From the NCBI GenBank assembly GCA_963774555.1, contig CAVZFL010000001.1:357127-421126 (forward strand): a DNA stretch of 64,000 nt. Reading direction: 5' to 3'. A program made the position numbers and the translations under genes. A model generated the notes under the pieces. It worked only from the letters and a program-made list of their open reading frames with translations. It ran no database searches and had not been told where the DNA came from. Numbering within the stretch: the stretch's first letter is position 1; every line of letters starts with the position of its first letter. This stretch comes from an uncultured Solirubrobacterales bacterium (lineage in GTDB: Bacteria > Actinomycetota > Thermoleophilia > Solirubrobacterales > 70-9). Positions 33,291-61,026 of this stretch are shown in pieces.

Positions 33291-33344
33291 ACCGCCGAAA
33301 GCTACCCACGAGAGCCCGCACGAGTATTAGCCGCGCTTTGAGTA

Positions 33345-39769: not shown

Positions 39770-39812
39770 GCCCTCGCGGGACTCCGCCCAGTTCGCGGGG
39801 CAGGTCAACCGC

Positions 39813-40484
39813 ATGTTCGATCGCGTCGCGAGCCGCTACGACGCGCTCAACTCGGTGATGACGGCCGGCCTGCATCACCGCTGGCGGGAGCGCGCCGCCG
39901 AGCGGGCCGAACTCAGCCCCGGCGACTCGGCGCTCGACGTCTGCTGCGGCACCGGCGACTTGGCGCTCGAGCTGGCCGGGCGCGTGGCGCCCGACGGCCA
40001 CGTCGTCGGCTGCGATTTCTCCGAGCCGATGCTCGACCTCGCCCGCGAGAAGGCCAGCTCGCGCGGCGCCGCGGGCGTCCGCTTCGAGTGGGCCGACGCG
40101 CTCAGCCTGCCCTACGACGCCGATCGCTTCGACGCCGTCACGGTTGGCTTCGGCGTGCGCAACCTCGCCGACCTCGACCGCGGCCTGCGCGAGATGACCC
40201 GGGTTCTGCGCCCGGGCGGGCGCCTGGTCGTGCTCGAGATCACCCAGCCGACGAGGCCGCCGCTCTCGACCTTCTACTCGCTCTGGTTCGACCGCATCGT
40301 GCCGCTGCTCGGCTCGCTCTCCGAGCGAGTCGGAGGCCTACAGCTACCTGCCCGAGTCGGTGCGCAACTTCCCCGCGGCCGGAACGGCTGGCCGAGATGA
40401 TGGACGCGGCGCGGGCTGGAGCAGATTCGCTGGACGGTTCTCGCCGGGGGGATCATCGCGATCCACAGCGGCGTCCTCGGGTGA
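39813..40484 (+). CDS. menG: demethylmenaquinone methyltransferase (UbiE/MenG) (about three apparent frameshifts at the 3' end)
   Basis: MFDRVASRYDALNSVMTAGLHHRWR, the SAM motif LDVCCGTGDLALEL, and VGFGVRNL. The C-terminal pieces EAYSYLPESVRNFPAA, ERLAEMMDAA and GLEQIRWTVLAGGIIAIHSG lie in different frames. The start may be upstream and non-canonical. Confidence 0.8.
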
Positions 40485-43874: not shown

Positions 43875-43996
43875 AGCTGGCTTGAGCGGCTTGTAAATGC
43901 CGATTTCCAGCTAAAGGGCAGTCGGATTTCAACGGCCTGGGCTAGAGGCGGTCCGAATGTTTGGCCGTGCCATCCCAGGGTCTGCGTAGGATCGCT

Positions 43997-44016
43997 ACGT
44001 ATACAGTTCGTATACG
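43997..44016. promoter_or_regulatory. possible operator upstream of the DUF4065 gene
   Basis: aCGTATAC-agtt-CGTATACg contains two copies of the GTATAC palindrome, 47-66 nt upstream of the ATG at 44063. Confidence 0.4.
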
Positions 44017-44062
44017 AGTTGAGAGCTTGCAGACTCTATTAGCCTTTACGAGGCGAAAGATC

Positions 44063-44608
44063 ATGACCGAGAACCAGCCATTTGATCGAACGAAGTTCGA
44101 GGAGCTGATCGTCTACATCGCGAAGCGTCTCGGCCCGGAGGCGGCGCTTGGCCGCGTCAAGCTCGCCAAGCTTCTGAAGGCAAGCGATTTTGGTGCCTAT
44201 GAGCGCTTTGGGAGGCCGATAACTGGCGCCATCTACGAGAAGTGGGAGCATGGCCATCTTCCACGGGAGCTGCTGCTTGCTCAGCGCGATCTAGAGGCTC
44301 AGGGGGCAATCAAGGTCGAGATCGAGGACTACTACGGAAAGCAGCTCAAGCACATCACGGCGCACCGCGACCCTAATTTGCGCGACTTCAGCGAGGACGA
44401 GCTGGGGGTCATCGAGACGGCGTTGCATCACTTCGGCTACGAGAGCGCCACCCACTTGAGCGATCTGTCCCACCTCGAGGTGGGCTGGCGCCTGGCTCAG
44501 TGGAAGGAAGCTATCCCTTATCGAACGGTGTTTCTGGGTGCTGGGGGCGTCACCGAGGCCGATGTACGTCGGGGCGAGGAACTAGCTTCCTCGCATGGCT
44601 GGAACTGA
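44063..44608 (+). CDS. DUF4065 / Panacea (SocA-like) domain protein, putative antitoxin
   Basis: 181 aa. FDRTKFEELIVYIAKRLGPEAALGRVKLAKLLKASDFGAYERFGRPITGAIYEKWEHGHLP is typical of the DUF4065 N-terminal region. Codon usage is lower-GC than the surroundings. Confidence 0.65.
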   Translation: MTENQPFDRTKFEELIVYIAKRLGPEAALGRVKLAKLLKASDFGAYERFGRPITGAIYEKWEHGHLPRELLLAQRDLEAQGAIKVEIEDYYGKQLKHITAHRDPNLRDFSEDELGVIETALHHFGYESATHLSDLSHLEVGWRLAQWKEAIPYRTVFLGAGGVTEADVRRGEELASSHGWN

Positions 44609-45033: not shown

Positions 45034-45786
45034 TTAACGGGGCGTGCAGGCCTTTTCGATGCTGCCGTCGATGATGGTGCCGTCGCCGAAGGTGAAGCGA
45101 CCGTGGGTGCGGAAGATGCCGTCGCTGCAGCGGGCCGAGGTGTAGCTGCGCTGCTGACCGTGCGAAGCTGTAATGCCTGCCGACCGTGGCGTCGATGTGG
45201 GTGAGGGAGCCCTGGCCTTCGGGATCGGCGGCACGTCGATCGTGGCGCGGTAGCGGTAGTCGCCCCGGCGGCGTTCGATCGGAATCGTGATGACGAAGGT
45301 CTGAGCCGCGGGCACGGTGGTGCGGGCGTGGGCGATCACCGTCGGCCTGCCTTCCCGGCGGGGACCGTTGAAGAGCGAGAGTGGCGAGCTCGCTTCGATC
45401 GGGGGTTGCCCATCGCGGGCGATCAGCGCGTCGAGGTGGCCCTGGCCGACGATCGCCCCGCGGCAGCGGCTGCGGGCTTCGGCCGGCGTCGTCCCTTCCA
45501 GCAGCAGCGGCTGGCACACGGGCAGGCCGGCGACGCTGAGCCGGCCGTCGTGGTCGAAGTCGATTCTCGCCTGCTGCAGGGCCGGCGGCACGCCGCCGTC
45601 GGTTGAGCGCAGGTTGGCGAAGCCGCGGAAGTCGATCGGTGCATAGCTGCGGCGGGGCAGCTTGCTGGGCCTGAAGCCACCGTCCGCGGTCAGCACCAGG
45701 TTGCCCACCTTGACCAGCGCCGCGTTCGCGCCACTGGCCAGCACGATGCAGGCAGCGAGCGCTCCGATTCCCAGTAGCCGCTTCAA
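45034..45786 (-). CDS. secreted hypothetical protein (apparent frameshifts near 45170-45230)
   Basis: It has a signal peptide (MKRLLGIGALAACIVLASGANA). The alternative frame reads PEGQGSLTHIDATVGR in the disrupted stretch. It is divergent from the MMPL gene. Confidence 0.5.
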   Translation of the reverse strand: MKRLLGIGALAACIVLASGANAALVKVGNLVLTADGGFRPSKLPRRSYAPIDFRGFANLRSTDGGVPPALQQARIDFDHDGRLSVAGLPVCQPLLLEGTTPAEARSRCRGAIVGQGHLDALIARDGQPPIEASSPLSLFNGPRREGRPTVIAHARTTVPAAQTFVITIPIERRRGDYRYRATIDVPPIPKARAPSPTSTPRSAGITASHGQQRSYTSARCSDGIFRTHGRFTFGDGTIIDGSIEKACTPR

Positions 45787-45903: not shown

Positions 45904-48900
45904 GTGCCTGTGAGGAGGAGCAGGGGGGAAGACGATGGCGCGCGCGCGAAGGGTGGGAAGCCCCGGCCACCGGCGACGCTGAGACACCCGCGCCGCGCGC
46001 TGGCGGTGGCGGCGCTCTTCGTCGTCGCGCTCGTCGCCTTTGGCACCACCCTCGAGAGCAAGCTCACCCCGAGCACCCTCGACATCCCCGGCACCTCGGT
46101 GCACGGCGCCAACCAGATGCTCACCAGGTACTTCGGGGACTCGGCTCCCTTCGTGGTCCTGCTGCAGGGGCAGCCGGCGGCGCTCGACCGCCAGGGCCCC
46201 GAGCTGATCCGCACCCTGCGGCGCGATCCGAAGGTGACCACGCTCTCGCCCTGGGATCGTGGCTCGGTCAGTCAGCTGCGCCCGACCCCGCGGCGGGCGC
46301 TGATCCTGCTCGACTACCACGTGCCCGGCTCCGAGGCGGTCAAAGACAAGGTGCCGTTGCTCGACCGCACCCTGGAAGAAAAGATCCACACGCCGGTGCG
46401 GGCCACGCAGACCGGCTTCGCCACGCTGACCCGCTCGGTTCAGGACCAGTCGATCTCGAGCAGCGAGCGGGCCGAGCTGATCGCCCTGCCGATCCTGCTG
46501 ATCGTCCTCCTGCTCGTCTTCCGCTCGCCGATCGCCGCGGCGATCCCGCTCGGCTTCGGCGCGATCTCCGTCTTCGCCTCGCGCGGCCTGCTGGCACTCG
46601 TGACCAACTGGTTCGGCGTCGACGCGATCGCCCTCACCGTCTGCACGATGATGGGCCTGGCGCTCGGGGTCGACTACGCCCTCTTGATGGTCTCGCGCTT
46701 CCGCGAAGAGCTTGCTGCCGGCTCGGACCCGACCCACGCCGCCTGGACGACGCGCCGCACCGCCGGTCGCACCGTGGTCTTCGCCGGCAGCACCCTGGTG
46801 CTCTCGATGGTCGTCGCCCTCTTCGTCGTGCCCGGGCTCGCTGCTGGCTTCGCTGGCCGGGACGCTGGCGCTGGTGGTGACGCTGACCGTGCTCGTCGCC
46901 CTCGCCCTCGGGCCGCCGATCCTCGTCCTCGCCGGACCCAACATCGACCGCTGGCGCATCGGGCCGGCGCCGAACGGCGAACGCTCGCGGCTGATGACGA
47001 TCGTCTCGGCGGCACTGCGCCGCCCGGCTGCGGTGGCCGCCCTGATCGGCGCCGTCGTGCTGGTGCTGGCGACGCCGGCGCTGGGGCTGAAGACCGGCCC
47101 CTTCAGCATCGGCCAGCTGCCCCAGGACGATCCCGCCCGCCTCGACGCCGAACGGATCCAGGACGCCTTCGGCGAAGGCTACGAAGCTCCTTACACGATC
47201 GTTGCCGCGGCCAGGGAAGGCACGATCACCGAACCCGAACGCCTCGACGCCCTCGCGCGCTGGCAGCGACGCATCGCCGCGACCCCCGGCGTGCAGAGCG
47301 TGATCGGGCCGGGGCAGATCTCCCACCGGGTCGAATCGCTGCGCAAGACCGGCAACGCCCTGCTCGCCTCCAACGAACAAGTCGGCCCGCTGGCCAACCT
47401 CGGCCGCCTCAGTCACAACCTCGGCCGCGCCGCCAGCGCCGTCGCAACCCTGCGCGGCGGGATCTCGCAGGCAACCTACGGCGCCGGCCTGCTGGCGGAA
47501 GGATCCGGCCAGGCCGAAGCCGGCGCGATCGCCCTCGCCGGTGGGCTCGGCAAAGTGGCCTCGGCCAGCGCCGAAGCGGTGACGGCGCTGGACAAATTCG
47601 CCAAAGGCACCAAGGAACTCGCTGCGGCACAGCGCCGCGCCACGGTCGGCGCCTTGGCGCTGAAGCTCAACCTTCCCGATATCGCCACGAACCTCCGCTT
47701 CAACGGGCTGCGCCACTCCGAAAAGGCGCGGGAATCGATCGAAACGGAGGCCAACGACAAGCTGCCCGAGCTCCACTCGGCCGCTCAGGTCGCCGAAGAA
47801 CAGCTGAAGGTCGCCCTCCAGCAGCTCGACCAGATGACGGTCGGCAAGACCGACCCGAGCTACGTGGCGACGCTCGACGCCGTGCGCAAGGCCTCCGCGG
47901 CCGTCAGCGGCACCGACCCCGCCAGCGGCCAGCCCTATGCGCCGGGATACACGGGGCTGCCAGCCGAACTCACCGCCCTGCAGGCGCGCCTGCTCGAAGA
48001 CGCCAACCAGGCCCAGGAAGCGTCGCGCTGGATCACCTCGGAAACCGCCCACATCGACCGCATGGCGTCCGTCGCCAAGAAGCTCTCCGAAGGGCTCAAC
48101 AAGATCGCCGCCGGCGGCAACAAGGTCGCCAAGAGCGCCGAAACGCTCGACCAGGAAACGAAGAAGCTCGCCGACGGCCTGGGCCGGCTCGACTCCGGCA
48201 CGGGCCGCCTGGTCGGCGGGCTCGCCCAGCTCACCGGCGGCACAACCCAGCTGGAACAGGGGCTGGGCGAAATCTACGGGCGCTCCTACCCGCTGCAGAA
48301 GGGCCTGCGCCAGTTGACCGTCCGCGTCGTTGCGCAGAACAAGAACCTCAACCGCCGCGTGGAGAACGTCCGCCGCACCACACCCGGCATCTTCAACTCC
48401 GGTTACTTCGTCCTCTCCGCTCTCGACGGGACCCGCGGGCGCAACCACGAACGCGCCTCGGAAGCGGTCAACCTGAACGGCGGGGGCCAGGCGGCGAAAC
48501 TGCTGGTCATCTCGCGCTACGGCTTCAACTCGCCGGGCTCGATCGCGCTCAACCACAAGCTCAACGACGACGCCGCGGCGCTCGCCAGGGAAGCGGACGT
48601 CGACACCGGGGTCGCCGGCGGCGCCGCCACCCTCAACACCTACAGCCACGTGACCAAGGAGCGGTTCCCCTACGTGATCGCGGCGATTACCCTGGCCACC
48701 TTCCTCGTCCTGGTCCTCGTCCTGCGGGCGCTGCCGCTGGCGGCGATCGCGGTCGGGCTCAACCTCGCCACCGTCGGCGTCGCCTTCGGCGTGCTCACCG
48801 TGCTCACCCTGATTCCCGACAGCTGGCCCCTGGGCGGCCGCGAATACGTCGACGCGGTCGGGGCGACGATGATCTTCGGCGTCGTCTTCGGGCTCTCGAT

Positions 48901-49225
48901 CGATTACGCGGTCTTCCTGCTCGTGCGCATGCGCGAGCACTACGACCTCGAGGGCGATAACGCCGCCGCGATCACCTTCGGCCTGGAAAAGACGGCGCGG
49001 GTGATCACCGGCGCCGCGGCGATCATGATGGCGGTCTTCATCGCCTTCGCCGGCGCCCCGATCGCCACCGTCAGCCAGCTCGGCATCGGCCTCACGGTCG
49101 CCGTCCTGATCGACGCCACCGTGGTCCGCATCGTCCTGCTGCCGGCCCTGATGCTGCTGATCGGCAAACGCGTCTGGTGGCTGCCGAAGCCGCTGGAGCG
49201 GGTGCTGCCGCGGCTCAACGTCTGA
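45904..49225 (+). CDS. MMPL/RND-superfamily transporter with large coiled-coil (YhgE/Pip-like) periplasmic insertion (one apparent frameshift near 46832)
   Basis: Two track ORFs (45904.. and ..49225) join at FVVPG/SLLASLAG. The MMPL motifs GVDYALLMVSRFREEL and GLSIDYAVFLLVRMREHY are each followed by a TM bundle. About 500 aa of heptad-like helical repeats (GLAQLTGGTTQLEQGLGEI) sit in the second periplasmic loop. The total length is 3n+1, consistent with a single indel. Confidence 0.85.
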
Positions 49226-49228
49226 TTT

Positions 49229-50689
49229 TCAGCGGGGAATCAGCTCGTCGATCTCGACCAGGCGGAGGTGCTCGTTCTCCTCTGCCGCCGCCTTCAGCCC
49301 GTCGGTGAAGCCGCTGCGTGAGAAAAGGACGATAAGGGGCCCGGCCTTATGCGTCTTCGCCCCGCTTTGGCGGAGCGCAGGCAGCTTGTATCTCTCGATC
49401 TCGGCAAGCAGCGAGACCGAAACCGGCTTGGCCGTCCACTTGCACTCGCCCACGACCGAGACCCGGCTGTGATGGAGGCCGACGAGGTCGATCTCCTCCG
49501 TCTCACGCTCGTGTTTGGCGCGCAATTCGTGCAAAGCCGGGCCCCACCAGCTGCCAACTCGACTTGCCTCGCTGCCGAGGTTCGCTCGCACCCAACGCCT
49601 GCAGAGGGTCTCGAACGCCGGCGCGATGTGTTCGGAAAGCGCCGGCGCCACCTCTGCTCTCCACAGGTCGGCCGGCTTGAGCCCCGCTTCCAGCTCGGAA
49701 GCGTAGGGCCGGACGAAGCGGAACCAGAAGCGGAAGAAGCCGTCGGTCAGTCGGTAGCGGTACCCGGCCGAGTCCTTGCCAGCGGTGATCGGGAGTTGGC
49801 GGTCGATGATCCTCATCTCCTGGAGGGTCCGCAGGTACTCCGTCAGCGACGTGCTCGGCGTACCGAGGGCGTTGGAGAGGTCACGCAAGGCTCGCGGTCC
49901 GGAAGCGAGCTCGTCGAGGATCGAAAAATAGATAGCCGGCCTTCGCAGCTCCTGCTGGAGGACGTAGGGCGGCTCCTCGAAGAGGGTGCCGAGGTGGCTC
50001 AGGACGCTTCTCTCGAGCAGGTCCCTCAGCGCCCCGCCGCGGGCGAGCTCGCCGAGGTACATCGGCATGCCGCCGCTTACCGAGAAGCGCTCGACCCAAT
50101 CGCGGGGGCTGTCGGCCTCGATGAACGGCGCACACTCGTCAGGACCGAGCGGGGAGACGAAGAAGCGATAGAGGCGGCCGTGCAACGGGCTCTCCTCTCC
50201 CAGGAGCCGCTCCATCGAGCTGATCTGCGAACCGCAGAGAATGAACTTCGTCTGCGAGGAATCCTGCTCCTCCTCGATCACCGCCTGGATTCCCGTCAGC
50301 ATCTCCCGCCGCTCCTTCTGCGCGCTTGGCATCAGGTGCGGGAACTCGTCGATGACGGCGAGGACCTTCTCCTCGCGGCCGAGCCGGTAGAGGACCCGGA
50401 AGAGGTCCGGCACGTCGGCGAGGTCCGGCCGCACGCCCAGTGGGCCCTCGAGCGCCATCGCCAGCTTTCTCAATTGGGCACCCTCGGCGCCAGCCTCGGC
50501 GACGAGGACGATGGCCGGCTTCGCGTGGGCGACGGCCCGGAACAGCCATGACTTGCCGACGCGGCGCCGCCCGTACATCGCGACGAGCCGCCTGGTTTTC
50601 CCGCTCCACCAGCGGTTCAGCTGAGCGAGCTCGTCCTCGCGGTTCAAGAACTCGCTGGCAAGGGTCCATCGGAAGGTCTGGATTGCCAT
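49229..50689 (-). CDS. AAA-type ATPase (Arch_ATPase/ATPase_2-like) fused to a DUF234 PD-(D/E)xK-like domain
   Basis: 486 aa. Walker A YGRRRVGKSW, Walker B-like VIDEFPHL, a winged-helix-like middle region, and a C-terminal EIDLVGL...VVGECKW nuclease-like motif. It is visibly less GC-rich than its neighbours. Confidence 0.75.
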   Translation of the reverse strand: MAIQTFRWTLASEFLNREDELAQLNRWWSGKTRRLVAMYGRRRVGKSWLFRAVAHAKPAIVLVAEAGAEGAQLRKLAMALEGPLGVRPDLADVPDLFRVLYRLGREEKVLAVIDEFPHLMPSAQKERREMLTGIQAVIEEEQDSSQTKFILCGSQISSMERLLGEESPLHGRLYRFFVSPLGPDECAPFIEADSPRDWVERFSVSGGMPMYLGELARGGALRDLLERSVLSHLGTLFEEPPYVLQQELRRPAIYFSILDELASGPRALRDLSNALGTPSTSLTEYLRTLQEMRIIDRQLPITAGKDSAGYRYRLTDGFFRFWFRFVRPYASELEAGLKPADLWRAEVAPALSEHIAPAFETLCRRWVRANLGSEASRVGSWWGPALHELRAKHERETEEIDLVGLHHSRVSVVGECKWTAKPVSVSLLAEIERYKLPALRQSGAKTHKAGPLIVLFSRSGFTDGLKAAAEENEHLRLVEIDELIPR

Positions 50690-50703
50690 ATAATCTAGAT
50701 TAT
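50690..50703. promoter_or_regulatory. 14-bp perfect AT-rich palindrome abutting the ATPase start codon
   Basis: ATAATCTAGATTAT lies immediately 5' of the ATG (minus strand). TATAAT/TAATCT-type -10 hexamers on both strands sit in the ATPase/mce divergent spacer. This suggests a leaderless or short-leader transcript and an operator. Confidence 0.45.
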
Positions 50704-50866
50704 TATAAGCACGACTATACGGCTGGGGTGCAGCTGCCCCGGTTACTTTCCGGCGTTGAATTCCAGTTAAGTCCCTGCTCGGCGGGCTCTTGGGGGGCGA
50801 TGGCTCGGATACGATTCTGCAGCCGTTCCACCGGATCGGAGGCCGGGGAACCGCAAGCGACGATCC

Positions 50867-52273
50867 GTGGCTGCCAATCCCTCAGGCGAGGAAAAAAGCT
50901 CGGCGCAAAGCCGGGGGGTCACCCCCGCCCGAATTGCGGCGATCGCGGTGCTCGCGGTGGCGGTGATCGGGCTGGCGATCGTGATCTTCAGCGGCGACGG
51001 CGAACACAAGTACAACCTGCTGTTCCAGAACGCGAGCCAGCTCGTTCCCGACAACCAGGTGCTGATCGGGGGCCAGCCGGTCGGCTCGGTCGAAAGCATC
51101 GAGCTGACCGACGACAACCTGGCCAAAGTCGTGGTCAGCGTCGAACAGGAGCTGCACGAGGGGACGACGGCGACGATCCGCGCCACCTCGCTCTCCGGCG
51201 TCGCCAACCACTACGTCTCGATCAGCCCCGGGCCGAACAGCAGCCCGCCGCTCGGCGAAGGCGCCACGCTCGGCCTTGCCGACACGACCACCCCGGTCGA
51301 CATCGACCAGTTCTTCAACACCTTCCCGCCGCCGGTGCGCCGCGGCCTGGCCCAGTTCATCAAGGGCAACGCCCAGTGGTACGCGGGCGCCGGCAAGGCG
51401 GCCAACGAAACCTACAAGTACCTGGGCGTCGGCTTCAACCGCGCCGGCGCCTTCGTCCACGCGCTCAACGCCGACGAAAACCTCTTCGCCCGCTTCCTGG
51501 TCAACTCGGACCGGCTCAGCACGGCGGTCTCCGAACGCGGCGCCGAGCTCTCCAGCGCGATCGCCAACGCCAGCACCGCCTTCGGCGCGATCGCCAGCCA
51601 GAACGCCGCCCTCGGCCGCAGCCTCGAGCTGCTGCCGCCGACCTTCCGCCAGGCCAACACGACCTTCGTCAACCTGCGCGCCGCGCTCGACGACGTCGAA
51701 CCGCTGATCGACGCGACGGGCACCTCGACCAAGGACCTCGCTCCCTTCCTCGCCGAATTCCGCCCGGTGCTCTCCAGGGCCGTGCCGGTCTTCGAAAACC
51801 TCGCCCTGACGGTGCGGCGCAAGGGCTTCGCCAACGACTCGGCCGAACTGCTGGCGACGCTGCCCGCGGTGCAGAGCCGCGCCGCGCGGACGTTCCCGCA
51901 CGCCGAAGACTCGATCGAAGCCTTCCAACCCAACCTCAACTTCTTCCGCGCCTACGCATCCGACTTCTTCAACGGCTTCGCCAAGCTCGGGCAGGTCACG
52001 GCGCCCTATGACGGCAACGGCCACTACGCGCGCGCCAGCCTCTCCAGCCTCAACCTCTTCGACTTCGCCGGCAGCGGCGAAGCCCTCAAACCGATCGAAC
52101 CGAAAGAACAGTACGAAGCCTACGGCGAATCGGCCGGCATCAAGCGCCGCTGCCCGGGCGGCGCCAGCCAGCCGGCTGCCGACGGCTCCAGCCCCTTCAC
52201 CGAACCGCCCTTCAGCGGCTCCGGCGTGACCACCTCCGACTGCAACCCCGACGACTCGCCCCCGGGACCATGA
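50867..52273 (+). CDS. Mce/MlaD-domain protein 1 of 6
   Basis: 468 aa. N-terminal TM (IAAIAVLAVAVIGLAIVIF), then the MlaD fold signature YNLLFQNASQLVPDNQVLIGGQPVGSVESIEL, and a long helical and C-terminal region. Confidence 0.85.
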   Translation: MAANPSGEEKSSAQSRGVTPARIAAIAVLAVAVIGLAIVIFSGDGEHKYNLLFQNASQLVPDNQVLIGGQPVGSVESIELTDDNLAKVVVSVEQELHEGTTATIRATSLSGVANHYVSISPGPNSSPPLGEGATLGLADTTTPVDIDQFFNTFPPPVRRGLAQFIKGNAQWYAGAGKAANETYKYLGVGFNRAGAFVHALNADENLFARFLVNSDRLSTAVSERGAELSSAIANASTAFGAIASQNAALGRSLELLPPTFRQANTTFVNLRAALDDVEPLIDATGTSTKDLAPFLAEFRPVLSRAVPVFENLALTVRRKGFANDSAELLATLPAVQSRAARTFPHAEDSIEAFQPNLNFFRAYASDFFNGFAKLGQVTAPYDGNGHYARASLSSLNLFDFAGSGEALKPIEPKEQYEAYGESAGIKRRCPGGASQPAADGSSPFTEPPFSGSGVTTSDCNPDDSPPGP

Positions 52274-53793
52274 GGAAAACGCTCGTCATAGGCGCGGTGG
52301 TGGCGGTCGTGATCGCCGCCGTCGTCCTGCTCGCCTCGGGGGGTGGCAGCAGCAGCGGCTACGTCGTGCGGGCGGTCTTCGACAACGGCGGTTTCATGGT
52401 CAAGGGCGAGCAGGTGCGCGTCGCCGGCGCCAACGTCGGCGAAATCGAATCGGTCAGCGTCAGCCTGCCGGGCGAAGTGACCAGCTACCAAGGCGGCAGG
52501 CCGCGCAAGGTCTCCGGCAAGGCGGTGATCGTGATGAAGATCACCGATCCCGGCTTCCAGGACTTCCGCAGCGACGCCTCCTGCCTGATCCGCCCGCAGT
52601 CGCTGATCGGCGAGAAGTTCGTCGACTGTCGCCCGACCGTGCCCCGCGCCCCGGGCTCGCCACCGGCGCCGCCGCTGAAGCAGGTCCCCTCCGGCCAGCC
52701 GGGGGCGGGCGAGTACCTGCTGCCGCTGGAGAACAACAGCACCAGCGTCGACCCCGACCTGATCAACGACATCAACAAGCTGCCCTACGCGCAGCGCTTC
52801 CGCTTGATCCTCAACGAACTCGGCGCCGGCCTGGCCGGACGCGGCGCCGACATCGAGGCCGCGGTCAAGCGCGCCAACCCGGCCCTGCGCGACATCGACC
52901 GCCTGCTCGGCATCCTCAACTCCCAGCGCGACCAGCTGACCCAGCTCGCCGCCGACTCCGAGCAGGTCCTCGAGCCGCTCTCGCGCGAACGCGCCCACGT
53001 CGCCGGCTTCTTCGCCAACGCCGGCTCCGCCGCCCAGGCAAGCTCCGAACGCGGCGCCGACCTGGAAGCCTCGCTGCGCAAGTTCCCCGCCTTCCTGCGC
53101 GAGTTCCGCCTCACCATGCGCAGCCTGCAGGGCTTCTCCGACGCGGCGACGCCGACCTTTGCCGCGCTCGGCAAGGCCGCCCCGTCCTTCACCGAATCGA
53201 CCCGCCTGCTGGCCCCCTTCTCGGCTGCCTCGACGGTCTCGTTGAAGTCGCTTGGCGTCACCGGCGAAGAAGCCGGCCCGACCCTGCGCGCCGCCGACCC
53301 GATCGTGAGGAAGACGACCGAACTGGCGCAGACCGGCGTCACCCCGACCACGAAGCTGGCCGAATTCCTCGCCAGCACCAAGGAAACGGGCGGCTTCGAC
53401 AGTCTCGTCGAACTGATTTACAACGCCACGGCTGCATCCAACGGATTCGATAAATACGGCCACTTCACTCGACTGCTTCCTTCGCTGACCAACTGTCTCG
53501 AATACGAACTGGAAGCCAGCGGCTGCTCGGCTAAATACACCGGCACCAACGCGGGCACCTCGTCGATTTCCGAGGCAGACCTCTTCTCCCTCTTCGCCGA
53601 AGAAGAAGCCGCGCGGGTCGGTGGCACCCTGGCTCGTCCGGGCGGGCCTGCGACGAGCCTCGCGCCCGCGGCACCCACAAGCCCGGCTCGCCCCGCGACG
53701 CCACAGCTGGGCGAAGGCCGCGGTCTCGGCGCCTCCAATGAGCTCCCCGGGGCTGCTCAACGTGCCCTCCTCGACTACCTCCTGAAACGATGA
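52270..53793 (+). CDS. Mce/MlaD-domain protein 2 of 6
   Basis: 507 aa with a TM, then YVVRAVFDNGGFMVKGEQVRVAGANVGEIESVSV. ATGA overlap with the upstream gene. Confidence 0.85.
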   Translation: MRKTLVIGAVVAVVIAAVVLLASGGGSSSGYVVRAVFDNGGFMVKGEQVRVAGANVGEIESVSVSLPGEVTSYQGGRPRKVSGKAVIVMKITDPGFQDFRSDASCLIRPQSLIGEKFVDCRPTVPRAPGSPPAPPLKQVPSGQPGAGEYLLPLENNSTSVDPDLINDINKLPYAQRFRLILNELGAGLAGRGADIEAAVKRANPALRDIDRLLGILNSQRDQLTQLAADSEQVLEPLSRERAHVAGFFANAGSAAQASSERGADLEASLRKFPAFLREFRLTMRSLQGFSDAATPTFAALGKAAPSFTESTRLLAPFSAASTVSLKSLGVTGEEAGPTLRAADPIVRKTTELAQTGVTPTTKLAEFLASTKETGGFDSLVELIYNATAASNGFDKYGHFTRLLPSLTNCLEYELEASGCSAKYTGTNAGTSSISEADLFSLFAEEEAARVGGTLARPGGPATSLAPAAPTSPARPATPQLGEGRGLGASNELPGAAQRALLDYLLKR

Positions 53794-55229
53794 GAAACCG
53801 CAGCGGCATACAGGGAGTGGCAAGCAGCCCGGTGATCGTCGGCGCGGTGACCGTGCTGGTCGTGATCGTCGCCGTCTTCCTCGCCTACAACGCCAACAAC
53901 GGCCTGCCCTTCGTCTCCACCTACAACCTCAAGGCGCGCGTGCCCAACGCCAACGCTCTGGTCAAGGGCAACGAGGTGCGGATCGGTGGCGCCCGCGTCG
54001 GCGTCGTCAAGTCGGTCGTGACGGTGCAGCTGGCGGGAGGCAGGGTCGCCTCCGAACTCAGCCTCAGCCTCGACAAGAACGTCGAGCCGTTGCCGAACAA
54101 CTCGACGATGATCATCCGGCCCAAATCGCCGCTCGGCCTCAAGTACCTGCAGATCGTCCCCGGCGACTCGAAGCAGGGCTTCGCCGCCGGCGAAACGATC
54201 CCGATCGAGGCGGCGCATCCCGAACCGGTCGACATCGACCAGTTCTTCGACATGTTCGATGCCAAGACGCGCCGCGCGATCCAGCGCAACCTGGCCGGCT
54301 TCGGCAATGCCTTCGCCTCGCGCGGGCCGCAGATCAACAATGCCTTCTCCGCGCTGCGCCCGCTGCTGGAAAACAGCGAGCCGACGCTCGCCACCCTGGT
54401 CAGACCGAGTACCGGCTTCGGCGAATTCTGGCGCGCGCTGGAGGCGCTCTCGGCCACGGTCGCCCCGGTTGCCGAGCAACAGGCGAGCATGTTCGCCGCA
54501 CTCGACCGCACCTTTGCCGCCTTCGCCCGCGTCTCCCGTCCCTTCATCCAGGAAACGATCTCCAAGGGCCCGGAAACCCTCGACGCCGTCACCGCCGACC
54601 TGCCCGCCCTGCGGCCCTTCCTCCACGACTCCGCCCGCTTCTTCACCGCCTTGAAGCCCGGCGCCGACGCCCTGGCCGCCACCTCGCCGACGATCTCCGC
54701 TGCCCTGCGCGCGGGCATCCCGGCGCTCAACGAATCGCCGAAGCTCAACGCGCAGCTGCCGCCGACGGCCGACGCGCTGCTCGCCTTCCAGAACTCGCCG
54801 GGCGTCTTCAACGGGCTCGACCTGCTGATCGAAACCAACGACCTGCTCAAGCCGGCGATCGGCTTCCTCGCTCCCGCCCAGACCACCTGCAACTACCTGA
54901 CGCTTGCGTTCAGGAACGTGGCGGGGGCTGCCGGTACCGGTAACGGACACGGCAACTGGTTCAACGTGATCGCCTTCCAGCCCCCGATCGGACCAAACTC
55001 TGAGGGAGGTCCCGCCTCCGCTCCGGCCAACGGCGGCGGCCCCGAAGAACGTCTCAATCACCTCCACTCCAACCCCTACCCGAACACGGCTGCGCCGGAT
55101 CAACCTAAAGAGTGCGAGGCCGGCAACGAGCACTACGAACTCGGCAAGACGAGAATCGGCAACACACCCCGCAATGACGGGATCAAAACCAGCGGTCAAT
55201 CGAAGAAACAGCTGGGGGAAGAAAAGTAA
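53790..55229 (+). CDS. Mce/MlaD-domain protein 3 of 6
   Basis: 479 aa with a TM, then YNLKARVPNANALVKGNEVRIGGARVGVVKSVV. ATGA overlap with the upstream gene. Confidence 0.85.
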   Translation: MRNRSGIQGVASSPVIVGAVTVLVVIVAVFLAYNANNGLPFVSTYNLKARVPNANALVKGNEVRIGGARVGVVKSVVTVQLAGGRVASELSLSLDKNVEPLPNNSTMIIRPKSPLGLKYLQIVPGDSKQGFAAGETIPIEAAHPEPVDIDQFFDMFDAKTRRAIQRNLAGFGNAFASRGPQINNAFSALRPLLENSEPTLATLVRPSTGFGEFWRALEALSATVAPVAEQQASMFAALDRTFAAFARVSRPFIQETISKGPETLDAVTADLPALRPFLHDSARFFTALKPGADALAATSPTISAALRAGIPALNESPKLNAQLPPTADALLAFQNSPGVFNGLDLLIETNDLLKPAIGFLAPAQTTCNYLTLAFRNVAGAAGTGNGHGNWFNVIAFQPPIGPNSEGGPASAPANGGGPEERLNHLHSNPYPNTAAPDQPKECEAGNEHYELGKTRIGNTPRNDGIKTSGQSKKQLGEEK

Positions 55230-56737
55230 TGGGCCGGCTTCCGGAGCGCGACACCAGAGCGGGGGCGACGAACAGTCGCTTCAAGTGGCATCCCAGCAAC
55301 GCGATGATCGCCGTGATCTTCATCCTGATCTTCACGATCGGTCCCTATCTGGCCTTCACCGGCCACGTGCCCTTCACCAGCTACGGCTACGAGCTCAAGG
55401 CGACCTTCTCCAACGGGGTCAACATCTCGACCAACTCGCCGGTGCGGATCGCCGGCGTCGACGTCGGCCGCGTGATCGCGACCGAACGCGATGGCGACGC
55501 GACCACCGTCACCTTCACGGTCGAAGGCAAGGGCCAGCCGATCCACGACGACGCCTTCGCCGCGATCCGCCCGCGCATCTTCCTCGAGGGCAACTTCTTC
55601 GTCGACCTCTCGCCCGGCAGCCCGAGCGCGCCGGAGCTCGGCAGCGGCGACACGATCCCAGTCAGCCACACCTCCACCTGGGTCCAGATCGACCAGGTGC
55701 TGACCGCCCTGCAGGCGCCGGTGCGGGCCGACCTCAGCCGCCTGCTGGAGAGCTACGGCACAGCCCTGACCCACAAGCCGACAGCTGCCGAAGACGTCAC
55801 CCAGCTGCCCGAGGTGCGGGGCAAGACGGCCGGCCAGGCGCTCAACCGCGCCTTCCGCACCGGCGGCGACGCCGGCCGCTACAGCGCCCAGGTCACCAAC
55901 GCCCTGCTCGGCACCGAGCCCGGCGACCTCTCCCGCGTCGTCGCCGGCAGCGGCCGCTTCTTCGGCGCTCTGGCCCACAACGAGGAGGACCTCAAGGGCC
56001 TGATCGTCAACTTCGACACCTTCACCGGCGCGCTTGCCAACCAGTCGTCCAGCCTCTCGACCGCCGTCCACCGTCTGGCCCCGACCCTGCAGAACTTCCA
56101 CAGCTCTCTGGTCAGCCTCAACCAGACGCTGCCGCCGCTGCGCGCCTGGGCGATCGAGCTGAAGCCCGCGGTCGAAGAACTGCCCGGCTGGATCGCCGCT
56201 GGCAAGCCCTGGGTCAAGCAGGCCATGCCGCTGCTCTCCGCCAGGGAGGCGGGTGGCACCGCCAGGCTGCTGCGCGAAGGCGTCCCCGGCCTCGCCGGCG
56301 CCGCCCAGGCCGGCAAGGCGGTGGCGCTGCCGCAGCTCAACCGGATCAGCCTCTGCACGACCAAGGTCCTCGTGCCCACCTTCAACCAGGTGATCGACGA
56401 TCAGTTCTCCACCGGCCAGCCGAATTACCGCGAGTTCCTCTACACCCTCACCGACTTCTCCGGCTGGGGACAGAGTTTTGACGGAAACGGCCCCTTCTTG
56501 CGGGTGCAGCCGGGCGGCGGCAATGTGCTGGTCGAACAGGCGAACCCGAACGGCAACCTGAGTACGGACAAGCGTGATTTCGCCCACTCGATCGCGCCTC
56601 CGCTTGGCGACCAGCCTCAGCTCGGCGGGCTTCCGCCGAAGAAGCCGGAAGTGCGTTGCGATCGCAATCCCGTCCCAGACCTCAATGCCGGTCTCGGTCA
56701 GGCCGGCCCCCCCACCCCCGCGGCGGTGAGCCCGTGA
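55229..56737 (+). CDS. Mce/MlaD-domain protein 4 of 6
   Basis: 502 aa with a TM, then YELKATFSNGVNISTNSPVRIAGVDVGRVIATE. TAATG overlap with the upstream gene. Confidence 0.85.
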   Translation: MGRLPERDTRAGATNSRFKWHPSNAMIAVIFILIFTIGPYLAFTGHVPFTSYGYELKATFSNGVNISTNSPVRIAGVDVGRVIATERDGDATTVTFTVEGKGQPIHDDAFAAIRPRIFLEGNFFVDLSPGSPSAPELGSGDTIPVSHTSTWVQIDQVLTALQAPVRADLSRLLESYGTALTHKPTAAEDVTQLPEVRGKTAGQALNRAFRTGGDAGRYSAQVTNALLGTEPGDLSRVVAGSGRFFGALAHNEEDLKGLIVNFDTFTGALANQSSSLSTAVHRLAPTLQNFHSSLVSLNQTLPPLRAWAIELKPAVEELPGWIAAGKPWVKQAMPLLSAREAGGTARLLREGVPGLAGAAQAGKAVALPQLNRISLCTTKVLVPTFNQVIDDQFSTGQPNYREFLYTLTDFSGWGQSFDGNGPFLRVQPGGGNVLVEQANPNGNLSTDKRDFAHSIAPPLGDQPQLGGLPPKKPEVRCDRNPVPDLNAGLGQAGPPTPAAVSP

Positions 56738-58137
56738 GCGAGGAGCCGAAAGTGAGCCGCTGGCGGCACTTCCGCAATTCGCTCTCGCGCCAGGCGCGCG
56801 GCCGCAGCAAAGACTCGATCGCGATCGCCGTCCTCGTCGCGCTCGGGATAGTGATGACGCTCTGGATCTTCACCCAGCAGAAGGCCTCGCTGCCGTCCTG
56901 GGTTCCACTCGTGGGCGAAGAATTCGCCCACGTCACGGGAGAGTTCACCACGGCGCAGGCGGTCACCCCGGGCCAGGGTCAGGCCGTCGACGTCGCCGGC
57001 ATCCAGATCGGCAAGGTCACCTCGGTCGACCTCGAAGACGGCCACGCCGTCGTCGGCATGGACATCGAGCCCAAGTACCTGAAGCTGATCCACCCCGACG
57101 CGACCCTGCTGCTGCGACCCAAGACCAACCTCAACGACATGGTCGTCGAGGTCGACCCGGGCAACGCCAAGGGCCACATCGAAGACGGCTACGAGTTCCC
57201 CCTCTCGCGCACCGAACCGAACGCAAACCTCGACGCCTTTCTCGCCACCCTCGACGCCGACACCCGCCAGTACATCCAGCTGCTCGTCGCGGGAGGTGCC
57301 CAGGGCATCGGCGGCCGCGGCCGCCAGCTCTCCGGCGCGCTGCGTCGTCTGCAGCCCTTCTCCCACTACGTCGCCGACCTCAACCGGGCCGTTGCGCGCC
57401 GGCGCGGCGCCCTCGCCCGGGTGATCCACGACTTCGGCCTGCTGACCACCGAACTGGGCCGCCACGACGCCGAGATCGAACGCTTCGTCAGCTCCTCCAA
57501 GGACGCGCTCGGCAACTTCTCCAACCAACAGCACGCGATCGAAGAAACCCTGGTCGAATTGCCCTCGACGCTGAGCGCCGCCGAAGCCGCCTTTGCCAGC
57601 GCCAACACCTTCTCCAAGACCGCCCGCCCGGCTCTGCTGGCGCTGATCCCCCAGGCCCAGGCGCTGAAGCCGGCGCTGAAGGCCAACGAGCGGCTCTTCG
57701 AACAGACGACGGTGCCGATCCGCGATCAGATCCGTCCCTTCACCCGCCAGATCCGGCCGGTCCTAACCCATGCCAAGCAGGGCTCGGCCGACTTCAGCAA
57801 GTCGGTGCGCAGCTTCGGCAACGCGCTCGGCGCCTTCAACAGCTTCCTCAACGAGCTCGCCTACAAGCCGAAGGGCAAGCAGAGCTACCTCTTCTACCTG
57901 CCCTGGCTCAACCACGACACCAACGCGACCTTCAACCTCGAGGATCCAGCCGGTCCGATTGGGCGCGCACTGATCATGCTCTCCTGCAACGGGTCCGCGC
58001 TTGCCCGCGGCGCGGCAGCTGCCTCTACTTACCTCGAAGCAGCGCTGCGAGGATCGAATACGCCCAGACCGGGTGAATTGCCACCGATCACCTCCGCAGC
58101 CGCTGGCGTGAGCAGCTGCGGGCCAGGAACAGAATGA
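56734..58137 (+). CDS. Mce/MlaD-domain protein 5 of 6
   Basis: The GTG at 56734 overlaps the upstream stop (GTGA); the track ORF starts at 56656. It has a TM (IAIAVLVALGIVMTLWIF), then VTGEFTTAQAVTPGQGQAVDVAGIQIGKVTSVDL. Confidence 0.85.
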   Translation: MSEEPKVSRWRHFRNSLSRQARGRSKDSIAIAVLVALGIVMTLWIFTQQKASLPSWVPLVGEEFAHVTGEFTTAQAVTPGQGQAVDVAGIQIGKVTSVDLEDGHAVVGMDIEPKYLKLIHPDATLLLRPKTNLNDMVVEVDPGNAKGHIEDGYEFPLSRTEPNANLDAFLATLDADTRQYIQLLVAGGAQGIGGRGRQLSGALRRLQPFSHYVADLNRAVARRRGALARVIHDFGLLTTELGRHDAEIERFVSSSKDALGNFSNQQHAIEETLVELPSTLSAAEAAFASANTFSKTARPALLALIPQAQALKPALKANERLFEQTTVPIRDQIRPFTRQIRPVLTHAKQGSADFSKSVRSFGNALGAFNSFLNELAYKPKGKQSYLFYLPWLNHDTNATFNLEDPAGPIGRALIMLSCNGSALARGAAAASTYLEAALRGSNTPRPGELPPITSAAAGVSSCGPGTE

Positions 58138-59702
58138 GCAAGCGCGCCCCCAGCACAACCCAGCTCCTGGTGATCGCCGGCTTCGCCCTCTCCTGCTTCG
58201 GCATCCTGCTCTTCCTCTGGATCACCTTCGGCGGGCCGACGCCGTTCAAGGCCAAGCCGTATGAGATCGAGATCCCCTTCAACGAGGCGACCCAGCTCGC
58301 CCAGCAGTCCGACGTGCGGATCTCCGGCGTGTCGGTCGGCAAGGTGCAGGACATCGTCCTCGCCCCCAACGGCGAACAGGCTCTCGCCAAGGTCGACATC
58401 AACGACAAGTACGGGCCGATCCCGAAGGACACGCGGGCAATCCTGCGCACCAAGACGCTGCTCGGCGAGACCTACATCGAACTCACCCCGGGCGACCACA
58501 GCGGGCCGGTGCTGCCCGACGGCGGCACCCTGCCCGAGGCGCAGATCGCCGAATCGGTCCAGCTCGACGAGATCTTCCGCACCTTCAACCCCCAGACCCG
58601 CGCCGCCTTCCAGACTTGGCAGCAGGAAGCCGCGGTGGCGATCGAGGGACAGGGCGCGAGCCTCTCCTACGCCTTCGGCGAGCTCGAACCGACCTTCGTC
58701 CAGTTCGACCACCTCTTCCGCGTTCTCGACAGCCAGCGGCTTGCGGTCAAGCAGATCTTCCGCAACGGTGCCACCTCGCTGCGGGCGCTGCGCGGCCGCC
58801 AGGGTGAGCTGGCCAGCCTGATCCAGAGCTCCAACGCGGTCTTCAGCACGGCGGCCGCCCGCAGCCGTCAGATCGAAGCCCTCTTCCGCGCCTTCCCCAC
58901 CTTCCAGGACGAGTCCCGCCTCACCGTCGAACGACTGAAGACCTTCGCCGTCGACGCCGACCCGGTGATGCAGCAGCTGGTGCCGGTCGCCGAACAGCTC
59001 TCGCCGACTCTGGTCGCCCTCGCCAAGTTCGCCCCGCCAGCAAAGCGGTTCTTCGAAGGGCTCGAGCCAGTGATCGCCCGCGCGCCCACCGGCTTCCCTG
59101 CCGCCCGCAAGCTCTTCCGCGACCAGTTCCCGCCGCTTCTGCGCGCGGCCGATCCCTTCCTGCGCAACCTCAATCCGTTCGTCACCGGGCTCGGTCTCTA
59201 CAAGCACGAGCTGGCGGCGACAATTGCCAACGTCTCCGACATTGCCAACGGCACGCTGACCGAAGAAGTGGAAGGAGTAAACCCCCATTACCTGCGCTCG
59301 ATGGGACCGTTCAGCCCGGAGTCACTCGCGACCTTCCCTGCCCGCACCACAACCAACCGCACCAATTCCTACTCTCAGCCTTTGGCCATGAAGAGTCTGC
59401 GGTCCGGCCTGCCCAGCTTCGATACCCGAGGCTGCACCAGCGGCGTAACAGCAACTCTCGACCCCGAAAGTTACAAAGACCCCGCCTTCGCGGAACGAAC
59501 TAAGCAGAGCTTGAAAACCTCTGAAGAAAACCTGAAAAAGTCTGAACGGTTCTTCAATACTTTGAAGCAGTACGCATTTGCCGAACAAAGCAATTCAGCC
59601 GCCACCCCGGCCCCCAGCTGCTTCCAGCAAGCCCCCTTCAGCCCAGTCGGCCAAAGCGGCGCGCAGACGACCTACCAGCACTACTTCGAACAGAGCAAAT
59701 AG
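58134..59702 (+). CDS. Mce/MlaD-domain protein 6 of 6
   Basis: 522 aa with a TM (LLVIAGFALSCFGILLFLWITF), then YEIEIPFNEATQLAQQSDVRISGVSVGKVQDIVL. ATGA overlap with the upstream gene. Confidence 0.85.
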   Translation: MSKRAPSTTQLLVIAGFALSCFGILLFLWITFGGPTPFKAKPYEIEIPFNEATQLAQQSDVRISGVSVGKVQDIVLAPNGEQALAKVDINDKYGPIPKDTRAILRTKTLLGETYIELTPGDHSGPVLPDGGTLPEAQIAESVQLDEIFRTFNPQTRAAFQTWQQEAAVAIEGQGASLSYAFGELEPTFVQFDHLFRVLDSQRLAVKQIFRNGATSLRALRGRQGELASLIQSSNAVFSTAAARSRQIEALFRAFPTFQDESRLTVERLKTFAVDADPVMQQLVPVAEQLSPTLVALAKFAPPAKRFFEGLEPVIARAPTGFPAARKLFRDQFPPLLRAADPFLRNLNPFVTGLGLYKHELAATIANVSDIANGTLTEEVEGVNPHYLRSMGPFSPESLATFPARTTTNRTNSYSQPLAMKSLRSGLPSFDTRGCTSGVTATLDPESYKDPAFAERTKQSLKTSEENLKKSERFFNTLKQYAFAEQSNSAATPAPSCFQQAPFSPVGQSGAQTTYQHYFEQSK

Positions 59703-59941: not shown

Positions 59942-60328
59942 ATGCCGGCGTCGCCAACAACGAAGTCTTTCGATGCGCTCCTTGCGGAAGAGATGCTTGC
60001 CGACCCCAACTTCAAGGCGGAGTGGCAGCGACTCGCCCCGGCGCGAGAGCTGGCGGCGACTCTCCTGCGCTATCGCGCGAAACACAAGTTGAGCCAGCGT
60101 GCGCTAGCGAAGGAGCTCGGCGTCTCTCAGCCCCGGGTGGTCAAGCTCGAGTCCGGAGAACACAACCCCGGGGTCGACACGATCATCGGTGTCGTGCGAC
60201 GGCTCGGGGTTGAGTTCGCCCTCGATATAGCCCCGTCCGGTAGGAAGCCGGCGCTTGTGACAGCACGAGCCCGTAAGGGCGGAGCGATCGATCACGACGA
60301 GGTCTCGGTCGTCGCGGCATTTGCCTGA
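59942..60328 (+). CDS. XRE-family HTH antitoxin (HigA-like)
   Basis: 128 aa with HKLSQRALAKELGVSQPRVVKLESGEHNPGVDTIIGVVRRLG. Confidence 0.75.
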   Translation: MPASPTTKSFDALLAEEMLADPNFKAEWQRLAPARELAATLLRYRAKHKLSQRALAKELGVSQPRVVKLESGEHNPGVDTIIGVVRRLGVEFALDIAPSGRKPALVTARARKGGAIDHDEVSVVAAFA

Positions 60329-60368
60329 TCCGGCCGGGATCGTGCTCCAGTGCAGTTATACTGCTGGT

Positions 60369-60656
60369 ATGACTCACAAGGTCGGCATCAAGGGCCAGGT
60401 CGTGATCCCGAAGGCGATTCGGGATGAAATCGGGATAAAGCCCGGTGACGAGGTGACGTTTGAGCCCGATGGCAAGGATGTGAGAGTTCGCCGCGTTGCC
60501 GACGATCCGACCGCGCGCGGTGAGCGGATCGAAGCTCTGCGGGGCGTCTGGGCTGGCATCCCCGGTCTCGGCACCGACGATCTGCTTGCCGCCCGCCGCG
60601 AAGAGCGAGAGCGCGAAGAGCGCAGAGCGCAGAGTCTGCTTGACGATCGTCCTTGA
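60369..60656 (+). CDS. vapB: AbrB/MazE/SpoVT-family antitoxin (VapB)
   Basis: MTHKVGIKGQVVIPKAIRDEIGIKPGDEVTFEPDG (SpoVT-AbrB fold). Confidence 0.8.
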   Translation: MTHKVGIKGQVVIPKAIRDEIGIKPGDEVTFEPDGKDVRVRRVADDPTARGERIEALRGVWAGIPGLGTDDLLAARREEREREERRAQSLLDDRP

Positions 60657-61026
60657 CACCTGGGCGCTGCTGGCGCATCTGCGCGATGAGCCGGCCGCCG
60701 AGCGGGTCCGCCGGGAGTGGATCGACAAAGGCGCGGCCATGTGCTCGGTCAACTTGGGCGAGGCGCTCTACCTGGAGATGCGCGCACGCGGCGTGGCTGG
60801 TGCCGGTGATGCGATCGAGGATGCGCGGCGAGAGCTGAAGCTCACCGAGCCGGACTGGGAGCTGGTCAAGGTCGCAGCCGAAGTCAAGGCAGTGGGCGGC
60901 CTGTCATTTGCCGACGCCTTTTGCATCGCAACGGCAAAGCGGTGCGACGCACCGCTTTGGACAGGCGATCCGGAGATCATCGATCTGGCCGATCGACTCG
61001 ACTGCGAGGTCGTTGACCTGCGATGA
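60640..61026 (+). CDS. vapC: PIN-domain toxin (VapC family)
   Basis: The TTG start at 60640 overlaps the vapB end. Sequence TIVLDTWALLAHLRDEPAA...SFADAFCIATAKRCDAPLWTGDPEI. Confidence 0.8.
   Translation: MTIVLDTWALLAHLRDEPAAERVRREWIDKGAAMCSVNLGEALYLEMRARGVAGAGDAIEDARRELKLTEPDWELVKVAAEVKAVGGLSFADAFCIATAKRCDAPLWTGDPEIIDLADRLDCEVVDLR

Follow-up and report, generated by a model that had tools for sequence, protein, structure and literature searches.

A six-gene mce cluster without linked ABC permease genes and its conserved MMPL transporter neighbor in uncultured Solirubrobacterales

Results

Six coupled mce genes lie downstream of a large MMPL gene

We analyzed a 64,000-nucleotide stretch of DNA (the window) from an uncultured Solirubrobacterales bacterium (assembly GCA_963774555.1, contig CAVZFL010000001.1, positions 357,127 to 421,126), focusing on six tandem mce genes and on the MMPL-family transporter gene, here called MMPL1, that precedes them on the same strand (Table 1). 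The window has a G+C content (GC) of ~68% and holds the chromosomal origin region. Between 50867 and 59702, six genes on the plus strand each encode a MlaD domain scoring above the Pfam cutoff, and all six proteins have one N-terminal hydrophobic or transmembrane (TM) helix. Reading the DNA directly, we found that the start codon of each gene from mceB to mceF overlaps the stop codon of the gene before it. A first-pass annotation, made from the letters alone, had described six consecutive, translationally coupled MlaD genes, and its overlaps proved exact.

Table 1. The mce cluster, its neighbors and related loci that carry ABC genes. Coordinates refer to the window unless a locus is named.
Feature	Coordinates	Strand	Description
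mceA	50867-52273	+	468 aa; Pfam MlaD; TM anchor, MCE domain, ~230-aa helical region, Cys-containing C-terminal domain
mceB	52270-53793	+	507 aa; Pfam MlaD; one N-terminal TM helix; ATGA overlap at 52270
mceC	53790-55229	+	479 aa; Pfam MlaD; TM helix strongly conserved, SPVIVGAVTVLVVIVAVFLAYNAN; ATGA overlap at 53790
mceD	55229-56737	+	502 aa; Pfam MlaD; TAATG overlap at 55229
mceE	56734-58137	+	467 aa from GTG at 56734; Pfam MlaD; TM anchor, no lipobox; GTGA overlap at 56734
mceF	58134-59702	+	522 aa; Pfam MlaD (E 5.6e-20); TM helix nearly invariant, FALSCFGILLFLW; ATGA overlap at 58134
MMPL1	45904-49225	+	~1106 aa; MMPL/RND transporter; 12 TM helices; Pfam MMPL in two frames
up250	45034-45786	-	Secreted ~250-aa protein; signal peptide, 4 invariant Cys; conserved cluster companion
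Conserved non-coding block	50752-50866	+	Directly 5' of mceA; motifs CGTTGAATTCCAGTTAAG and GCTCGGATACGATTC
ATPase_2/DUF234/HTH gene	49229-50689	-	Pfam assignment; divergent from mceA; insertion between MMPL1 and mce
u266	43044-43844		Size fits YrbE; one TM helix, then a soluble helical stretch
Type I loci	L084:7007-21347; L086/L087:7100-20172; L085; L090; L171		yrbEA-yrbEB-mceG-mceA-F-RND operons

The six proteins are ~24–28% identical to Mce proteins of Rhodococcus and Mycobacterium. They score 51–119 bits against TIGR00996 (Mtu_fam_mce), below the NCBIfam cutoff of 140.5. A structure model was made for MceA alone among the six. This AlphaFold2 model, built on an alignment of 72 sequences, has a mean predicted local distance difference test score (pLDDT) of 75 and places a TM helix at residues 20–41, the strands of a beta-barrel at 47–120, and helices at 146–372. 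When the model was compared with the PDB using Foldseek, the top matches were all six subunits of M. smegmatis Mce1 (8FED chains A–F, probability 1.00), and the MCE core or barrel matched MlaD with a TM-score of 0.82–0.85. As modeled, then, the subunit architecture (TM anchor, MCE domain, long helix) is that of the Mce1 subunits.

The C-terminal domain of MceA carries an invariant R-C-P-G motif (residues 428–431) and a second invariant Cys (residue 459; window ~52148–52243). Both features are kept in 72 MceA orthologues, down to 30% identity, which suggests a disulfide at the distal (‘portal’) end of the protein.

No genes for ABC partners accompany the cluster

In Mce systems of the Mce1 type, the membrane base is an ATP-binding cassette (ABC) transporter made of YrbE permeases and the MceG ATPase. 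Pfam scans of all open reading frames (ORFs) in the 64-kb window with high GC at third codon positions (GC3) revealed no MlaE/YrbE and no MlaF/MceG gene, so the absence of yrbE/mlaE and mceG that had been claimed for this locus holds across the whole window. We also ran phmmer against every ORF of 60 aa or longer in the window and in 81 related loci, the queries being the YrbEA, YrbEB and MceG proteins of Thermoleophilaceae operons and of an mce locus on a Rhodococcus plasmid; YrbE gave no match. Neither yrbE nor mceG was found within 10 kb of mce in ~160 related loci. A gene of the PqiA/LetA family was likewise absent from the window in Pfam scans.

Two candidates in the window were considered and rejected. 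The product of u266 has a size compatible with a divergent YrbE, but its topology rules this out (Table 1). The only ABC ATPase in the window (31401–33326, minus strand) is part of an ABC-2 exporter and was thus ruled out as MceG.

MMPL1 is predicted to be an active pump with a long periplasmic insertion

That an MMPL gene lies upstream of mce on the same strand, as first annotated, is correct, but the end assigned to it is not: the gene extends further, past a 1-nt frameshift near 46836. The ORF originally listed (45904–48960, 1018 aa) is a composite of two frames, and its match to Pfam MMPL (PF03176) extends only to residue 307. It is the frame of 46688–49225 that has high GC3 (0.90) and encodes the second MMPL domain. 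Taken over both frames, the protein contains two MMPL half-domains, at residues 133–307 in the first frame and 627–833 in the second. Inspection of the DNA places the 1-nt indel at ~46834–46838, by a CCCGGG run. In relatives the gene is intact, with MMPL1 orthologues encoded in a single frame in 74 of 74 cases (median length 1092 aa). In the window’s own assembly, gyrA (7297–8559/8388–9884) and gyrB (10869–11312/11179–12333) are also split between frames, which points to indel errors in what is likely a long-read metagenome-assembled genome (MAG). Because both gyrase genes are affected in the same way, we take the MMPL1 frameshift to be, probably, an assembly error as well, and judge true pseudogenization of MMPL1 in this genome unlikely.

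The closest solved structures to the TM core of MMPL1 are those of MmpL3 (E 2e-27). The proton-relay pairs of MmpL3, which we take to be D256/Y257 and D645/Y646, both have counterparts in MMPL1. TM4 reads GVDYALLMVSRFREE in MMPL1 versus AIDYGLFIVSRFREE in MmpL3, and the Asp-Tyr pair of TM10 aligns as GLSIDYAVFL versus GLSTDYEVFL. With both relay pairs kept, MMPL1 is predicted to be an active pump.

The second periplasmic domain of MMPL1 spans ~520 aa and includes an Ala/Leu/Gly-rich insertion of ~340 aa built of heptad repeats. This insertion matches the xxxLxxG family TIGR03057 above the NCBIfam cutoff (23.4 versus 18.6 bits), and its autocorrelation shows a periodicity of 7, 14, 21 and 28 residues. 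The long helical periplasmic insertion first noticed in this giant MMPL protein is therefore real. The genes flanking MMPL1 are up250 and mce; no MmpS family match was found beside it in Pfam and NCBIfam scans.

MMPL1 and up250 stay with mce across relatives

Window proteins looked up by exact sequence had no database entry, but searches with MceF returned thousands of homologues at 78–92% identity, some of them named Solirubrobacterales. A scan for MceA in one genome per GTDB species confirmed 401 relatives. From these we took the best 80 (MceA 66–83% identical) as a set of GTDB loci; most come from Solirubrobacterales MAGs, including closed chromosomes of 2.4–3.0 Mb. Genes were mapped by tblastn, and the usual order was TatC, u266, up250 (minus strand), MMPL, mceA-F. 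MMPL1 was upstream of mceA in 76 of the 80 species loci, and the other four end at a contig edge. The distance from MMPL1 to mceA was 107–169 bp in 50 loci, ~0.9–1.0 kb in 21, and of other lengths in five. In the 21 loci with the longer gap, a minus-strand up250 paralogue lies inside it, and in about a third of species opposite-strand genes separate MMPL1 from mce. In 57 of the 80 loci, all six mce genes had their full length and kept their order.

A second set, retrieved from JGI metagenomes with an alignment as query, comprised another 80 loci. Of these, 33 had enough flanking sequence, and in 30 of them MMPL1 lay upstream of mceA; none of the 80 had a match to YrbE or MceG. In ~110 informative loci, MMPL1 and mce were never apart, despite insertions between them. 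The first-pass annotation had asked whether the MMPL gene and the mce set co-occur in related genomes; they do so in every informative relative, and also in a sister clade where the genes are ordered differently (see below). Judged by this conservation of neighborhood, the link between MMPL1 and Mce is real. We refer to clusters of the window’s kind as Type II, which is a new, widespread variant of the known Mce system.

In one MAG, SMAG_U4281, two contigs (L021 and L032) each bear a copy of the cluster, with MceA 80% and 79% identical to that of the window. The cluster may truly be duplicated there, or the bin may contain more than one strain.

The small gene up250 is the other constant companion. 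Every related locus, those of the sister clade included, has between one and five up250 paralogues beside MMPL/mce (e.g. L001:1758–2555, L088:12622–14942). The protein begins with an N-terminal hydrophobic signal and has no Pfam or NCBIfam match. Its 877 homologues in a set of 5.8 billion proteins carry no functional annotation beyond ‘hypothetical’. An AlphaFold2 model from 56 sequences was poor (pLDDT 57.7), and Foldseek found no match to it in the PDB with E<0.1.

An inserted ATPase gene and a conserved, probable control block separate MMPL1 from mceA

In the window, an ATPase gene on the opposite strand occupies the space between MMPL1 and mceA. This gene has no tblastn match in any of 81 related loci; at its position, relatives have either 107–169 bp of DNA or an up250 paralogue. 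Sequence comparison thus indicates that the gene is an insertion unique to this window and not part of the system. The suggestion that the ATPase gene was a later insertion is borne out by the lack of a counterpart in 80 related genomes, and the corollary, that MMPL and mceA-F would be colinear without it, by the 50 of 76 informative species with the short gap. The gene had also been called divergent and of lower GC. The former is right, whereas the latter is marginal at best (0.665, versus 0.673 for mce and 0.704 for MMPL).

The interval 50690–50866, said to lack an ORF, indeed contains no credible one, and its 3' ~115 nt form a conserved non-coding block. Across 41 loci, 41 columns of this block are invariant. 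Allowing up to three mismatches, the first of its two motifs occurs once in each of 112 sequences (related loci and the window itself), apart from one weak extra occurrence, and never in front of MMPL. A plus-strand scan of the block gave no sigma-70 consensus, and no terminator-like site was found on the plus strand between MMPL and mceA. We considered an RNA element, but RNAalifold reported 0 compensatory pairs and Rfam no match, so a DNA control region is preferred. The block is probably the promoter/operator region of mce. Because mce has this conserved block of its own and opposite-strand genes intervene in about a third of species, co-transcription of MMPL1 and mce is not required, and it is unlikely wherever a minus-strand gene lies between them.

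Deeper relatives carry ABC genes and a different RND gene

We searched 1.84 billion representative proteins exhaustively with MceA and obtained 359 clusters with E<1e-30. Full-length MceA orthologues extended down to 30% identity, and all were closer to MceA than to MceB-F. Among those 40–45% identical to the window’s MceA are loci that we call Type I, in which the order is MlaE-MlaE-ABC_tran-mceA-F, followed ~20 nt on by an MMPL-family gene. In L090, ABC_tran is directly upstream of mceA. Members of the Type I permease clusters are named Thermoleophilaceae by NCBI, and among the 40 members listed for each 90% cluster of Type I YrbE or MceG none lies on a known Type II chromosome. The downstream RND gene of these loci is HAE3/HpnN-like (TIGR00921, 314 bits) and is not orthologous to the window’s MMPL, and no up250 genes were found in Type I loci. 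We found no description of an operon combining ABC, Mce and RND genes in the literature.

The nearest outgroup to Type II, a sister clade represented by L088/L089 (MceA 53% identity), has no yrbE on an 18.7-kb contig. Here mceA-F come first, followed by three up250 paralogues, by WYL and TetR genes and, last, by an orthologue of MMPL1 that is 52–56% identical to the window’s over 440 aa; L091 repeats this order. A glycosyltransferase and a beta-lactamase gene lie upstream, and mce, up250 and MMPL1 all fall within 5–6 kb. The association of MMPL1, up250 and mce therefore outlasts rearrangement and a changed genomic context.

Because relatives with 40–45% identical MceA carry yrbEA-yrbEB-mceG, the Mce family is ancestrally ABC-coupled. 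By the same comparison, Type II has lost the linked yrbEA-yrbEB-mceG genes that Type I kept, and an RND gene is attached in both architectures, drawn from different RND families. The first-pass annotation had regarded orthologous mce clusters preceded by yrbEAB and unlinked to any MMPL gene as the case that would speak against an MMPL–Mce pairing. Clusters with the first property exist, at the 40–45% level, but not with the second, since an RND gene follows them.

TM helices of MceC and MceF are conserved between the two types

We compared the TM helices of 14 Type II sequences with those of the sister clade and of Type I orthologues. Within Type II, identity in the TM helix is 0.89 for MceC and 0.97 for MceF. 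Between Type II and Type I it is 0.68 for MceC and 0.61 for MceF, higher than in the MCE domains of the same proteins (0.53 and 0.56), whereas the TM helices of the other four Mce proteins are only 0.23–0.30 identical. MceC of Rhodococcus has a motif similar to the MceC TM motif in Table 1. In the structure of Mce1, YrbE1AB is surrounded by TM helices that belong to Mce1A, B, C and F (PMC9882608). These data suggest that a YrbE-type permease, encoded elsewhere, is still the base of the Type II hexamer.

Discussion

Comparison with known systems

MCE systems are the main known route for lipids across bacterial envelopes. To our knowledge, only two kinds of membrane partner are established for them, MlaE-type ABC permeases and PqiA/LetA.

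The Type II cluster resembles the mycobacterial and actinobacterial Mce1 and Mce4 systems (YrbEA-YrbEB, MceA-F and MceG; 8FED/8FEE). It has the same six distinct genes in tandem and in fixed order, and its proteins share the TM anchor, MCE domain, long helical needle segment and C-terminal domain. It differs in having neither yrbEA/yrbEB upstream nor mceG nearby, in an MceE with a TM helix in place of a lipobox, in the lack of Mam/Mas genes downstream, and in the MMPL and up250 genes that are always linked to it. Relative to Type I, the six Mce proteins are orthologous, the MceC and MceF TM motifs are the same, and an RND gene is attached in both; Type I, however, keeps its ABC genes, has an HpnN/HAE3-like RND gene downstream instead, and lacks up250.

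A six-gene mce cluster without its own yrbEAB has been reported before, namely MAP2189-2194 of M. avium subsp. paratuberculosis, a second copy of mce5 (Casali and Riley 2007, PMC1810536). That cluster arose by recent duplication, and its genome has many further yrbE pairs, whereas the Type II arrangement is the conserved state of a whole clade and comes with a fixed MMPL neighbor. PqiAB(C) and LetAB likewise pair MCE rings or needles with a partner other than MlaE (PMC13631591), but there the partner is PqiA/LetA rather than an RND protein, and the MCE protein forms a homohexamer in which each chain has several MCE domains. As for MMPL1, it shares with MmpL3 and MmpL4/5, which are RND exporters of lipids, siderophores and drugs, the MMPL fold and both Asp-Tyr pairs, its TM core being closest to MmpL3. 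Its periplasmic coiled-coil extension recalls that of MmpL4/5 (PMC12501195). The ~340-aa xxxLxxG insertion, the lack of a visible MmpS gene and the linkage to mce set it apart from all three. The first-pass annotation knew of no described MMPL–Mce pairing, and our literature searches found no report of one either.

Possible roles of MMPL1 and the missing permease

The reading we prefer, and to which we give roughly even chances, is that Type II is an Mce variant whose permease is encoded in trans, with MMPL1 a functionally linked second transporter. The six Mce subunits would form an Mce1-like heterohexameric ring and needle, seated on an ABC permease of the YrbE type whose genes lie at another place in the genome. 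MMPL1 would serve the same envelope-lipid pathway without being the base of the hexamer, either as a proton-driven export arm to which Mce supplies the retrieval arm, or by handing lipid over laterally. Proteins of the up250 family may act as extracytoplasmic accessory factors. Such a split between export and retrieval would, by analogy, resemble the logic proposed for mycolic acids, with export by MmpL3 and recycling by Mce1, and Mce1 has indeed been implicated in mycolic-acid recycling (PMC8035080). There is also precedent for a partner gene at a distance, as mceG/mkl of M. tuberculosis is unlinked from mce (PMC1810536). Whether the hexamer borrows a permease encoded elsewhere or uses the MMPL protein as its inner-membrane partner was the choice posed by the first-pass annotation. 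We favor the former because the MceC and MceF TM helices are conserved between types; replacement of the ABC permease by MMPL is, on these data, less likely.

Several points weigh against this reading. The trans-encoded permease is assumed, not seen: the 64-kb window and ~160 loci, taken with 10 kb on either side, amount to ~2.7 Mb of Type II DNA, and neither YrbE nor MceG turned up in it. Nor can borrowing from a Type I operon in the same genome be taken as given, because the two types appear in seemingly different families: Type I in Thermoleophilaceae, Type II in other Solirubrobacterales MAGs with chromosomes of 2.4–3.0 Mb. The conserved TM helices could instead serve hexamer assembly or contact with the RND protein. 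Finally, we found no regulatory motif common to MMPL1 and mce.

That neither yrbE nor mceG occurs in any Type II locus or anywhere in the window would be explained differently if MMPL1 had replaced YrbEAB/MceG as a proton-driven inner-membrane partner, in genomes without any MlaE or MlaF. The adjacency of MMPL1, invariant, often within 107–169 bp and surviving rearrangement, fits such a hybrid of RND and MCE parts. So does its coiled-coil stalk, whose ~340 aa would, by residue count, give a length comparable to that of the Mce needle. MCE rings are already known with the non-ABC partners PqiA/LetA (PMC13631591), and the intact, ordered mce genes of 57 of 80 species indicate selection on the cluster in the absence of linked ABC genes. 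Had the partner changed, however, one would expect remodeled TM helices in MceC and MceF, and these have not diverged from the ABC-linked type. Type I carries both ABC and RND genes, which makes the RND component look like an addition rather than a substitute. The separate control block of mce and the opposite-strand genes in about a third of species also speak against a single machine and, on structural reasoning, the periplasmic domains of an RND pump would clash with an MCE ring placed on top of it. We therefore consider replacement doubtful. The same doubt attaches to its extension, that the hybrid forms a third class of MCE machine, assisted by up250, in a species-rich lineage (~400 matches in species-representative genomes).

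It is also conceivable that no functional tie exists, and that independent envelope genes have simply remained together by descent in a syntenic, origin-proximal region (TatC...DnaB) of a fairly young clade. Most of the 80 GTDB loci share the TatC-u266-up250-MMPL-mce block in synteny, a promoter-like block and insertions stand between MMPL1 and mce, the lack of a common regulatory motif would be expected, and MMPL genes are common in Actinomycetota. We nonetheless think shared descent alone an unlikely explanation. The sister clade has another context and gene order and still keeps mce, up250 and MMPL1 within 5–6 kb; Type I independently has a different RND gene at the end of its operon; and insertions between the genes have led to no separation in the ~110 informative loci. 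Least probable, in our view, is a motor-less conduit, in which the Mce proteins form a passive tunnel or wall-spanning scaffold on their six TM helices and the up250 proteins serve as its caps or carriers. It would fit the finding that MMPL1 is the sole transporter gene beside the cluster and that the up250 family is always present. But we know of no precedent for such a conduit, and the near-invariance of the MceC and MceF TM helices points to a specific partner in the membrane.

Under any of these readings, a large lineage of uncultured soil bacteria has an Mce1-like six-subunit system that is never encoded with ABC parts and always with an RND pump and up250, while in the Type I sister lineage ABC, Mce and a different RND gene share one operon. 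If the permease is encoded elsewhere, Type II would be a natural case of Mce and RND pumps organized into a single module of lipid traffic, one arm exporting and the other retrieving. Should an ABC transporter be missing altogether, it would represent a new mode of energizing MCE tunnels.

Other features of the window

The mce locus lies ~35 kb from dnaA. The origin region (13888–21483) contains dnaN, dnaA, a yidC-like 60KD_IMP gene, parA and parB, and gyrB and gyrA are also in the window. Two islets of lower GC flank the cluster. One, at 43961–44608, holds a gene with a SocA/Panacea antitoxin domain. The other, at 59942–61026, holds an XRE-HTH and PIN pair, resembling a toxin–antitoxin module, between mceF and the position of dnaB in relatives. 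Further away, a single ORF at 39069–40400 encodes a UbiE/COQ5 methyltransferase domain together with a cytochrome c domain and the C-terminal domain of cytochrome b, and could be a real fusion or another frameshift artefact.

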